Below, piece by piece: positions 23,051 to 40,824 of a stretch of 64,000 nt of DNA. The position numbers and the translations under genes are program-made. The notes beneath the pieces were generated by a model. The model was not told the DNA's origin. It saw only the letters and a list, made by a program, of their open reading frames with translations, and searched no databases. Position 1 is the first letter of the stretch, and every line of letters starts with the position of its first letter. Source of the DNA: Escherichia coli (GTDB taxonomy: Bacteria; Pseudomonadota; Gammaproteobacteria; Enterobacterales; Enterobacteriaceae); NCBI RefSeq assembly GCF_003334305.1, contig NZ_QOWS01000013.1. One strand, given 5' to 3'.

Positions 23051-23170
23051 AATCTCGCGCTAACAACCTGGAATCGAGCCGTCATACTACGGCGCAACGC
23101 CCTATAAAGTAAACGATGACCCTTCGGGAACTTCAGGGTAAAATGACTATCAAAATGTGAATTGTAGCTG

Positions 23171-23203
23171 ACCTGGGACTTGTACCCGGGTCGGTATTTT
23201 TTT
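23171..23203 (+). terminator. Terminator/attenuator hairpin in the greA leader (source of GraL short transcripts)
   Basis: Hairpin ACCTGGGACTTGTACCCGGGT followed by T7, about 95 nt upstream of the greA ATG. Confidence 0.5.
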
Positions 23204-29854: not shown

Positions 29855-29941
29855 GCCGAGGTGGTGGAATTGGTAGACACGCTACCTTGAGGTGGTAGTG
29901 CCCAATAGGGCTTACGGGTTCAAGTCCCGTCCTCGGTACCA
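29855..29941 (+). tRNA. leuU: tRNA-Leu (anticodon GAG), 87 nt, class II with long variable arm
   Basis: Sequence GCCGAGGTGGTGGAATTGGTAGACACGCTACCTTGAGGTGGTAG...GTCCTCGGTACCA with the anticodon loop CTTGAGG and an encoded CCA end. Confidence 0.95.
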
Positions 29942-33721: not shown

Positions 33722-33798
<77 letters not shown>

Positions 33799-33919
33799 CT
33801 TTCCCTTAGAGTCCTTTTTCAAATATACTGTGAAGACTTCGGCCTTCGTAGTGGGATTTGAAAAAATCCTTCTGGAAAGTGCTCCAGACCGCAGTTGCGG
33901 TTATAGGGTTCAGTTATAT

Positions 33920-33946
33920 AAAGCCCCGATTTATCGGGGTTTTTTG
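33920..33946 (+). terminator. Leader terminator/attenuator hairpin between metY and rimP
   Basis: Hairpin AGCCCCGATTTATCGGGGT followed by T6. Confidence 0.65.
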
Positions 33947-33967
33947 TTATCTGACTACAGAATAACT

Positions 33968-33987
33968 GGGCTTTAAGCCCTTTTTTT
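33968..33987 (+). terminator. Second hairpin with T tract immediately upstream of rimP
   Basis: GGGCTTTAAGCCC followed by T7; a tandem arrangement with the preceding hairpin. Confidence 0.45.
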
Positions 33988-34004
33988 ATGTCTTGGGGGT
34001 GGGC

Positions 34005-34484: not shown

Positions 34485-35972
<1,488 letters not shown>

Positions 35973-35996
35973 TAAACTGTAGCAGGAAGGAACAGC

Positions 35997-38669
35997 ATGA
36001 CAGATGTAACGATTAAAACGCTGGCCGCAGAGCGACAGACCTCCGTGGAACGCCTGGTACAGCAATTTGCTGATGCAGGTATCCGGAAGTCTGCTGACGA
36101 CTCTGTGTCTGCACAAGAGAAACAGACTTTGATTGACCACCTGAATCAGAAAAATTCAGGCCCGGACAAATTGACGCTGCAACGTAAAACACGCAGCACC
36201 CTTAACATTCCTGGTACCGGTGGAAAAAGCAAATCGGTACAAATCGAAGTCCGCAAGAAACGCACCTTTGTGAAACGCGATCCGCAAGAGGCTGAACGCC
36301 TTGCAGCGGAAGAGCAAGCGCAGCGTGAAGCGGAAGAGCAAGCCCGTCGTGAGGCAGAAGAATCGGCTAAACGCGAGGCGCAACAAAAAGCTGAACGTGA
36401 GGCCGCAGAACAAGCTAAGCGTGAAGCTGCTGAACAAGCGAAACGTGAAGCTGCGGAAAAAGACAAAGTGAGCAATCAACAAGACGATATGACTAAAAAC
36501 GCCCAGGCTGAAAAAGCCCGCCGTGAGCAGGAAGCTGCAGAGCTCAAGCGTAAAGCTGAAGAAGAAGCGCGTCGTAAACTCGAAGAAGAAGCACGTCGCG
36601 TTGCTGAAGAAGCACGTCGTATGGCGGAAGAAAACAAATGGACTGATAACGCGGAACCGACTGAAGATTCCAGCGATTATCATGTCACAACTTCTCAACA
36701 TGCTCGCCAGGCAGAAGACGAAAGCGATCGTGAAGTCGAAGGCGGCCGTGGCCGTGGTCGTAACGCGAAAGCAGCGCGTCCGAAGAAAGGCAACAAACAC
36801 GCTGAATCAAAAGCTGATCGTGAAGAAGCACGCGCAGCAGTACGTGGCGGTAAAGGCGGAAAACGTAAAGGTTCTTCCCTGCAGCAAGGCTTCCAGAAGC
36901 CAGCTCAGGCCGTTAACCGTGACGTTGTGATCGGCGAAACCATCACCGTTGGCGAACTGGCGAACAAGATGGCGGTTAAAGGCTCTCAGGTCATCAAAGC
37001 GATGATGAAACTGGGCGCAATGGCAACCATCAACCAGGTTATCGATCAGGAAACCGCACAGCTGGTTGCTGAAGAGATGGGCCACAAAGTTATCCTGCGT
37101 CGTGAAAACGAGCTGGAAGAGGCGGTAATGAGCGACCGTGACACGGGGGCTGCGGCTGAACCGCGCGCGCCGGTTGTGACCATCATGGGTCACGTTGACC
37201 ACGGTAAAACCTCTCTGCTGGACTACATTCGTTCAACGAAAGTGGCCTCTGGCGAAGCGGGCGGCATTACCCAGCACATTGGTGCATACCACGTTGAAAC
37301 TGAAAACGGCATGATCACCTTCCTGGACACCCCGGGGCACGCCGCGTTTACTTCAATGCGTGCACGTGGTGCGCAGGCAACGGACATCGTAGTCCTGGTT
37401 GTTGCTGCCGACGACGGCGTGATGCCGCAGACCATCGAAGCAATCCAGCACGCGAAAGCGGCGCAGGTACCGGTGGTGGTTGCAGTGAACAAGATCGATA
37501 AACCAGAAGCCGATCCGGATCGTGTTAAGAACGAACTCTCCCAGTATGGCATCCTGCCGGAAGAGTGGGGCGGTGAAAGCCAGTTCGTACACGTATCTGC
37601 GAAAGCGGGTACCGGTATCGATGAACTGCTGGACGCTATCCTGCTGCAGGCGGAAGTTCTGGAGCTAAAAGCGGTACGTAAAGGTATGGCGAGCGGTGCG
37701 GTTATCGAATCCTTCCTCGATAAAGGTCGTGGTCCGGTTGCTACCGTTCTGGTACGTGAAGGTACTCTGCACAAGGGCGATATCGTTCTGTGTGGCTTCG
37801 AATACGGTCGTGTTCGTGCGATGCGTAACGAACTGGGTCAGGAAGTGCTGGAAGCGGGTCCGTCCATTCCGGTGGAAATCCTCGGCCTGTCCGGCGTACC
37901 GGCTGCGGGTGATGAAGTTACCGTTGTACGTGACGAGAAGAAAGCGCGTGAAGTTGCACTGTATCGTCAGGGTAAATTCCGCGAAGTTAAACTGGCGCGT
38001 CAGCAGAAATCTAAACTCGAGAACATGTTCGCCAACATGACCGAAGGCGAAGTTCACGAAGTGAACATCGTCCTGAAGGCAGACGTACAGGGTTCTGTGG
38101 AAGCGATCTCCGACTCCTTGCTGAAACTGTCTACTGACGAAGTTAAAGTGAAGATCATCGGTTCTGGCGTAGGTGGTATCACCGAAACCGACGCCACCCT
38201 GGCTGCGGCGTCCAACGCCATCCTGGTTGGCTTCAACGTACGTGCTGATGCCTCTGCACGTAAAGTGATTGAAGCGGAAAGCCTGGATCTGCGTTACTAC
38301 TCCGTCATCTATAACCTGATTGACGAAGTGAAAGCGGCGATGAGCGGTATGCTGTCTCCGGAACTGAAACAGCAGATTATCGGTCTGGCGGAAGTTCGTG
38401 ACGTGTTCAAATCGCCGAAATTTGGTGCCATCGCAGGCTGTATGGTTACCGAAGGTGTGGTTAAACGTCACAACCCGATCCGCGTTCTGCGTGACAACGT
38501 GGTTATCTACGAAGGCGAGCTGGAGTCCCTGCGCCGCTTCAAAGATGACGTTAACGAAGTCCGTAACGGTATGGAATGTGGTATCGGCGTTAAGAACTAC
38601 AACGACGTCCGCACTGGCGATGTGATCGAAGTATTCGAAATCATCGAGATCCAACGTACCATCGCTTAA
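35997..38669 (+). CDS. infB: Translation initiation factor IF-2, 890 aa (alpha form)
   Basis: G domain motifs GHVDHGKT and DTPGH; repetitive Ala/Glu/Lys/Arg-rich N-terminal region. Confidence 0.97.
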
Positions 38670-38679
38670 GGTTTTTAGG

Positions 38680-38758
38680 GTTCCATGCGGGATAAGGCGT
38701 TTATGCCGCATCCGGCATGGATTGCCTGATGTGACGCTGGCGCGTCTTATCAGGCCAA
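38680..38758. repeat. REP/BIME-like palindromic elements in the infB-rbfA spacer
   Basis: GCCTGATGTGACGCTGGCGCGTCTTATCAGGCC and CGGGATAAGGCGTTTATGCCGCATCCGGC, both typical REP palindromes. Confidence 0.6.
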
Positions 38759-40230: not shown

Positions 40231-40596
<366 letters not shown>

Positions 40597-40611: not shown

Positions 40612-40640
40612 GAAAAGGGGGCCTGAGTGGCCCCTTTTTT
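40612..40640 (+). terminator. rpsO rho-independent terminator
   Basis: Hairpin AAAAGGGGGCCTGAGTGGCCCC followed by T6. Confidence 0.75.
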
Positions 40641-40650
40641 CAAGCTGACG

Positions 40651-40824
40651 GCAGCAATTCACTGGAAACTAATGTATTGTTGCTATGAATGATCTTCCGT
40701 TGCAGAGGTTCGCGCGGCTAATGAGAGGCTTTACCCACATAGAGCTGGGTTAGGGTTGTCATTAGTCGCGAGGATGCGCAGAAGATCGGGTATTAACACC
40801 AGTGCCGTAAGGTACTGTCTAAGA
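40651..40824 (-). ncRNA. sraG: Possible SraG (PsrO) sRNA antisense in the rpsO-pnp spacer
   Basis: Placed from remembered K-12 position only; I cannot confirm the ends from sequence. Confidence 0.3.

Follow-up and report, generated by a model that had tools for sequence, protein, structure and literature searches.

The window analyzed here, a 64,000-nt stretch of the E. coli chromosome, carries infB, the gene for IF2, as a plus-strand open reading frame encoding 890 aa. The gene order is metY-rimP-nusA-infB-rbfA-truB-rpsO-pnp; the run from rimP to pnp (rimP, nusA, infB, rbfA, truB, rpsO and pnp) lies entirely on the plus strand, and the rimP leader and the metY tRNA are located upstream of these genes. 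The infB product scores 987.9 bits against the TIGR00487 IF-2 equivalog model (cut-off, 424.4) over aa 306-889, and its Pfam domains comprise IF2_N (1-50 and 314-364), IF2_assoc (56-94), GTP_EFTU (393-549), EF-G_D2 (565-644), IF-2 (665-779) and GTP_EFTU_D2 (810-877). Among solved structures, the product matches those of E. coli IF2 (3jcj and others) as well as that of its N-terminal sub-domain (1nd9, aa 2-50); the equivalog model, the domain architecture and the nusA-infB-rbfA context all identify it as IF2. The features of the locus are collected in Table 1.

Table 1. Positions of the infB features in the window, with the evidence for each.
Feature	Position	Strand	Basis
infB CDS (IF2-1/alpha, 890 aa), stop codon included	35997..38669	+	ORF, annotation, TIGR00487, Pfam
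Primary start: SD AGGAAGGA (35984-35991) and AUG1 (35997-35999)	35984..35999	+	anti-SD duplex, -6.5 kcal/mol; K-12 N-terminal peptide
First IF2_N sub-domain, aa 1-50, IF2-1 only	35997..36146	+	Pfam PF04760; PDB 1nd9, aa 2-50
IF2_assoc region, aa 56-94	36162..36278	+	Pfam PF08364, E 7e-17
First tandem array: 7 in-register 24-nt units (8 aa, consensus roughly [KR]REAAEQA), aa 101-156	36297..36464	+	TRF, repeat finder, lag-24
Weak SD-like GGAA, 9-10 nt upstream of GUG158	36455..36458	+	-3.5 kcal/mol; conserved GCG-GAA
A-rich, low-GC stretch holding both internal starts, predicted unusually unpaired	36455..36510	+	accessibility prediction
GUG codon 158, IF2-2 (beta) start	36468..36470	+	in frame; literature; peptide; Enterobacterales conservation
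AUG codon 165, IF2-3 (beta-prime/gamma) start	36489..36491	+	in frame; literature; peptide; conservation
Second tandem array (period 24/21, RK.EEEAR-type), kept in all three isoforms	36549..36632	+	TRF rows 36549-36612, 36585-36632
Second IF2_N sub-domain, aa 314-364, in all isoforms	36936..37088	+	Pfam PF04760, E 6.5e-16
+1-frame ORF, 56 aa, TGA overlapping GUG158 as GTGA	36301-36471	+	ORF list
Minus-strand ORFs overlapping the region	36146-36475, 36156-36800, 36476-36637	-	ORF list

A 901-nt query taken around the start sites matched all 5426 of 5426 complete E. coli genomes, with an identity of at least 99% in 5335, and in the best matches it was 100% identical to infB as annotated there; in an identical E. 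coli record, infB is annotated at the same coordinates. The gene is the same as infB of E. coli K-12 (b3168, P0A705), with identical codon positions, peptide sequences and 70-nt core. This core (36436-36505) is 100% identical to that of K-12 MG1655 and is likewise identical in 5298 of the 5426 E. coli genomes; the other 128 differ from it by 1-3 mismatches. Over 36250-36700, the window and K-12 share 99.6% identity, which we read as 2 differences in 451 nt; the two genes are separated by strain-level SNPs only, with no functional difference.

The original prediction, made from the sequence alone, held that an in-frame GTG at codon 158 and an in-frame ATG at codon 165 serve as additional starts, such that one gene yields three protein isoforms. 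Both codons were placed correctly. However, infB contains 46 in-frame ATG, GTG or TTG codons, and an in-frame GTG and ATG are thus unremarkable by themselves; the significance of GTG158 and ATG165 rests on the identity of the gene to one that has been characterized experimentally and on cross-species conservation. In E. coli, translation of infB from AUG1, GUG158 and AUG165 was reported to produce IF2-1/alpha, IF2-2/beta and IF2-3/beta-prime or gamma, respectively (PMC13245402; PMC12297416), the names IF2-beta and IF2-gamma being those used in PMC12297416. The start positions in K-12 (3316014, 3315543 and 3315522) correspond to codon offsets of 0, +157 and +164, and the N-terminal peptides of the three isoforms cover residues 1-13, 158-175 and 165-175 (PMC13245402, supplementary table 3). 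These peptides agree with the translation of the window, and proteomic data exist in K-12 for all three starts, the shorter isoforms included. The known internal site of infB was also found by Ribo-RET, and the GTG site is flagged as Ribo-RET-supported in the table of PMC13245402. The molecular masses computed from the window, which are 97.3, 79.7 and 78.9 kDa with Met (78.8 kDa without it), agree with the published values of 97.3, 79.7 and 78.8 kDa (PMC3334882). The isoform peptides, the mutagenesis described below and the Ribo-RET signal are K-12 data.

For the cross-species comparison, species-representative genomes were scanned with an upstream DNA pattern for [IV]EVRKKRT[FY]V, by which the start region was left unbiased by the motif; Enterobacterales contributed 11 of the 120 infB loci that the scan yielded, the whole set being drawn from Gamma- and Betaproteobacteria. 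In this sample of related species, for which the conservation counts represent no formal probability, all 10 Enterobacterales with Val at the first start (E. coli counted) encode it by GTG, and Acerihabitans has TTG (Leu) there. The second start was ATG in E. coli and in 8 orthologues, with GTG taking its place in Pantoea stewartii. By comparison, the invariant Val92, used as a control, was encoded by GTG in only 7 of 12 sequences and by other Val codons in the remaining 5. The codon preceding the first start was AAA throughout, and nearby Ala, Lys and Arg codons varied synonymously. The upstream Ala-Glu pair was encoded by GCG-GAA, synonymous positions included, in 10 of the 11 Enterobacterales; Rosenbergiella has GTG-GAA instead, which gives a stronger SD, and the GGAA upstream of the first start was invariant across the Enterobacterales sampled. 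The identity of the start codons is thus kept in these relatives beyond the amino-acid requirement. The second start was absent in Photorhabdus (two sampled), which has only the first, and Budvicia lacks the whole start motif and hence both starts, so that even Enterobacterales do not all share the arrangement. As for the same GUG/AUG pair outside this order, no alignment of the linker could be made by eye for the sampled Vibrionales, Alteromonadales, Pseudomonadales and Betaproteobacteria. Vibrio has a conserved ATG within KAKK[DE]M[NT]AKN, a candidate site of initiation.

These observations bear on whether the short forms of IF2 could instead be products of proteolysis in an exposed linker, with the in-frame GTG and ATG being coincidental. 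Being charged and, by prediction, disordered, with E, A, R, K and Q making up 84% of aa 95-215, the linker could be protease-sensitive; moreover, in-frame start-like codons are common in infB, and SD-like pairing at the internal starts is weak. Nevertheless, the K-12 158-175 peptide carries Met where GUG encodes Val (PMC13245402), which is possible only through initiation at GUG, and the peptide starting at residue 165 begins with MTKNAQ (PMC13245402). Furthermore, the mutations g474c, a synonymous change of GUG to GUC, and t494c, which converts AUG to ACG, abolish IF2-2/3, whereas IF2-2/3 are still made from a deletion that lacks the IF2-1 start but stops 32 nt short of the IF2-2 start codon (PMC3334882); the two mutations map exactly to positions 36470 and 36490 of the window. 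The retention of GTG or TTG at codon 158 across Enterobacterales, when the control Val92 is free to use other Val codons, also argues against cleavage, and we consider the probability that proteolysis accounts for the short forms to be negligible.

A separate shorter transcript, produced from a promoter inside infB, would provide another source of the short isoforms, and the operon does contain several promoters and processing sites (PMC6511841). However, a search of 35700-36700 on both strands returned 0 sigma-70-like matches (0.2 expected in shuffles), and constructs with only 32 nt upstream of GUG158 express IF2-2/3 (PMC3334882). An internal promoter as the origin of the short isoforms is thus very improbable, and because a short transcript would use the same GUG and AUG, the reading of three isoforms from three start codons would hold in either case.

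How the ribosome finds the two internal codons is not evident from their Shine-Dalgarno pairing. The original prediction pointed to the region upstream of GUG158 as the place to look for an SD-like sequence; such a sequence is present in the form of GGAA, but it is weak and lies at the background level of the CDS. Pairing energies with the anti-SD were -6.5 kcal/mol for AUG1, -3.5 kcal/mol for GUG158 and -1.9 kcal/mol for AUG165, which is essentially without an SD, and values of -3.0 kcal/mol or better occur at 40% of infB positions. Since the SD-like match does not rise above background, sequence alone would not pick out GUG158 or AUG165, and these duplex energies led us to reject a strong SD as the main determinant of the internal starts. 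Strong Shine-Dalgarno pairing is probably not involved in internal initiation.

By contrast with the pairing energies, which are at background, the predicted accessibility of the mRNA around the internal starts is unusually high. The segment 36460-36489 has a GC content of 0.37 and an A content of 0.53, and the predicted unpaired probability over 30 nt (-20 to +9) puts both codons near the top of the CDS (GUG158, 97.7th percentile; AUG165, 99.5th percentile); among the scored in-frame start-like codons, AUG165 is predicted to rank first and GUG158 third. Similar predictions were obtained for 9 orthologues, in which the first start falls within the 84th-99th percentile and the second start, present in 8 of the 9, within the 96th-99.7th percentile. 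Folding of 36290-36650 was not unusual (MFE z = +0.45), which lends no support to unusually stable structure flanking the starts; structured flanks around an open site are therefore unsupported, and local openness alone is supported. The A at +4 agrees with the usual start-site preference. We infer that initiation at GUG158 and AUG165 would proceed chiefly via the open, A-rich and poorly structured mRNA, to which the weak conserved GGAA and the A at +4 may contribute. Laursen and colleagues (2002) reportedly reached a conclusion that agrees with such a mechanism.

The 56-aa ORF in the +1 frame, which terminates at GUG158, was considered in terms of termination-reinitiation coupling at the GTGA, and this possibility was rejected: T is never the second base of a codon for Glu, Ala, Lys, Arg or Gln, and the +1 frame consequently stays free of stops until the first hydrophobic codon. 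We know of no evidence of translation for this ORF or for the minus-strand ORFs that overlap the region.

Three in-frame initiation events on the infB mRNA almost certainly explain the region, the coordinates, gene identity and codon conservation being documented above and the isoform N-termini and the loss of the short forms in mutants being documented in the cited papers. Ribosomes would initiate independently at three in-frame codons of a single mRNA: AUG1 would give rise to the full-length IF2-1/alpha of 97.3 kDa, GUG158, decoded as fMet, to IF2-2/beta of 79.7 kDa, and AUG165 to IF2-3/gamma of 78.8 kDa. The two short forms would lack Domain I (aa 1-157) and, with it, the N1 sub-domain, the IF2_assoc region and the first E/A/R/K/Q-rich array of 8-aa units, and the GTPase and fMet-tRNA-binding core would be common to all three isoforms. 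Domain I, which is present in IF2-alpha only, binds NusA (PMC12297416), and the first IF2_N sub-domain has been published as the NusA-binding N1 domain (PMC12297416). The beta isoform loses most of the phase-separation capacity of IF2 (preprint), and the reported differences between the isoforms extend to NusA binding, DNA-repair roles, cold growth and phase separation (PMC3334882; PMC12297416; preprint).

The internal starts are preceded by tandem repeats of approximately 24 bp, as the original prediction had stated, and the 19-aa repeat peptide that it quoted corresponds to aa 137-155 (nt 36405-36461). The repeats are real, but the array extends further than was described, and downstream of the starts there is a second one. 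Because arrays are located on both sides, the two internal starts lie in a non-repeat, A-rich gap of ~85 nt. In the first array, TRF reported period-24 rows at 36305-36361 (score 79) and 36348-36462 (score 88), and nucleotide identity was 0.71 at lag 24 and 0.63 at lag 48, compared with 0.29-0.43 at other non-harmonic lags.

A segment of such extreme composition, in which the units are 65-72% identical to a reference copy, might acquire a 24-nt periodicity merely as a by-product of its low-complexity E/A/R/K content, with no true duplication of DNA. However, none of 5000 codon shuffles, which keep the composition, reached a lag-24 identity of 0.71, the highest value of any shuffle at any lag being 0.57, and identity is raised at lag 48 as well. 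In addition, the length differences between natural alleles are whole multiples of the unit, and the +48-nt insert is a perfect two-unit copy; such a pattern is the hallmark of a real tandem repeat undergoing slippage or unequal recombination. We regard the compositional explanation as highly unlikely, and conclude that the repeats are a tandemly duplicated coding segment for the charged, helix-prone or disordered linker of IF2-1. Our analyses of this locus found no link between the repeats and the initiation signal.

The length of the first array varies among E. coli genomes by -24, +24 and +48 nt, such that arrays of 6, 7, 8 and 9 units occur. Strain OkiPb01695 carries a perfect 48-nt (two-unit) insertion, resulting in an IF2 of 906 aa, and strains 2824 and E5 have one unit fewer (882 aa), with two different deletion alleles. 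According to matched-span lengths, at least 7 records are shorter by 24 nt, at least 7 are longer by 24 nt and 1 is longer by 48 nt. In the alleles inspected (OkiPb01695, 2824 and E5), the 30-nt core with both start codons is intact, and only IF2-1 is altered. Our literature search returned no published mention of infB repeat-length polymorphism, and an earlier description may nonetheless exist. It is conceivable, although we think it unlikely, that the array, through slippage, serves to tune the function or stoichiometry of the isoforms and is not a neutral linker. If this were true, the number of units would change the spacing from the N1 domain to the core in IF2-1 alone, and could shift the ratio of alpha to beta/gamma through the mRNA just upstream of the open site.

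In enterobacterial infB, "tandem translation" uses in-frame starts that follow a charged repeat, as is the case here, and in 10 of the 11 other Enterobacterales sampled, the starts are kept as GTG/TTG and ATG/GTG; the mRNA around the starts is predicted to be open. This tandem translation is said to have been described by Laursen and colleagues in 2002 (Genes Cells 7:901) and by Nyengaard and colleagues in 1991. In Bacillus subtilis, the short IF2 likewise comes from the same infB gene as the long one, through internal initiation between the two IF2N sub-domains, the alpha and beta forms arising from two in-frame starts (Hubert et al. 1992, cited in PMC1780047). The B. subtilis linker is probably unalignable with that of E. 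coli, and two isoforms are reported there as opposed to three in E. coli. Within E. coli itself, Ribo-RET also detects in-frame internal starts in arcB (yielding ArcB-C), clpB and mrcB, and in each of these genes, as in infB, an N-terminally truncated protein is made from the in-frame internal start. At arcB, the internal GUG is preceded at 6 nt by a strong SD, GAGGAG, in contrast to the infB internal starts, where the SD is weak or absent. The internal site of arcB is also contained in this window, at 1090-1092.

Every defining feature of the three-isoform system that could be examined here was found, with the exception of a recognizable SD, which is weak in the published gene too; the locus is therefore the known three-isoform system of E. 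coli infB and not a variant of it. The three-isoform finding itself holds nothing new, and only the variation in repeat number, a minor point, raises a further question; the support that our analysis adds to the known system consists of the codon conservation in Enterobacterales and the predicted accessibility of the mRNA. Given how weak the signals are, the SD being poor and in-frame start-like codons numerous, such reasoning would be unreliable for an uncharacterized gene that is not accompanied by conservation or experimental data. In infB, a real and functional internal start could be recognized from raw sequence, and the gene represents the classic bacterial case in which several proteins are produced from one gene through in-frame internal initiation.

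The 24-nt repeat array of infB (36297-36464), which precedes both internal starts, is length-polymorphic across complete E. coli genomes (infB loci L002, L123 and L125 in the comparison set): arrays shorter by 24 nt and arrays longer by 24 nt were each found in at least seven complete records, and an array longer by 48 nt, in which the insert consists of two perfectly duplicated units, in one. GUG158 and AUG165 are undamaged in all three of the length alleles inspected, and the length change is therefore confined to IF2-1, the longest isoform, which measures 882 and 906 aa in annotated variant records versus 890 aa here. A literature search of a limited collection returned no published description of this variation.

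Several long open frames overlap the repeats in other frames, namely 36301-36471 in the +1 frame and 36146-36475, 36156-36800 and 36476-36637 on the minus strand. The +1-frame ORF would encode a basic product of 56 aa, and its TGA shares bases with GUG158 (GTGA). We judge these ORFs to be by-products of composition, because the repeats are rich in E, A, K, R and Q codons, none of which has T at position 2; a +1-frame stop is therefore impossible before the first hydrophobic codon.

A second in-frame internal start has been published in the same window, the GUG of arcB from which ArcB-C is produced. G1947A, G1950A and G1959C, which were published as knock-out mutations of this site, correspond to window positions 1078, 1081 and 1090. 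Unlike the internal starts of infB, which have weak Shine-Dalgarno (SD) sequences, the arcB site has a strong one. The regulatory RNAs located in the window (the rimP and S15 leaders, SraG, the greA leader and ArcZ) are the set expected of this E. coli region, and shortly 3' of the infB stop lies a match to naRNA4/CssrE, a family equated with REP elements.

Internal-start, RNA and tRNA features located in the window
Feature	Position	Strand	Remarks
arcB internal-start SD, GAGGAG	1078-1083	+	inside arcB; strong
arcB internal GUG start	1090-1092	+	inside arcB; region 1078-1092
ArcZ	1475-1582	-	known regulatory RNA
greA leader	23081-23202		known regulatory RNA
tRNA-Leu(GAG)	29855-29941
tRNA-Met (metY)	33722-33798
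rimP leader	33887-33987		known regulatory RNA
naRNA4/CssrE	38686-38756	+	Rfam, 71.9 bits vs gathering score 59.5; infB-rbfA spacer
S15 leader	40269-40383		known regulatory RNA
SraG	40613-40784	-	known regulatory RNA

For three neighbouring genes, the longest ORF begins upstream of the annotated start: at 33993 rather than 34005 for rimP, 38815 rather than 38833 for rbfA, and 40756 rather than 40843 for pnp. The annotated rbfA start is consistent with the published N-terminal peptide MAKEFGR (PMC13245402), and that of pnp appears, from the ORF translation, to be a TTG codon.

Beyond E. coli, infB of several Vibrionaceae (Vibrio and Aliivibrio loci L015, L034, L058, L078 and L091) carries a conserved ATG within KAKK[DE]M[NT]AKN, immediately 3' of the gene's own charged 8-aa repeat. 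Its relative position is the same as that of the E. coli internal starts, which makes this ATG a candidate analogous internal start. Betaproteobacterial infB genes have a conserved motif of their own in common, IREMMNTPRK, located farther downstream. Photorhabdus infB (L026, L051) retains only the first internal start (GTG), and the KV[ST]NQQ..M motif is wholly absent from infB of Budvicia (L121). The E. coli-type arrangement of internal starts does not hold throughout the Enterobacterales.
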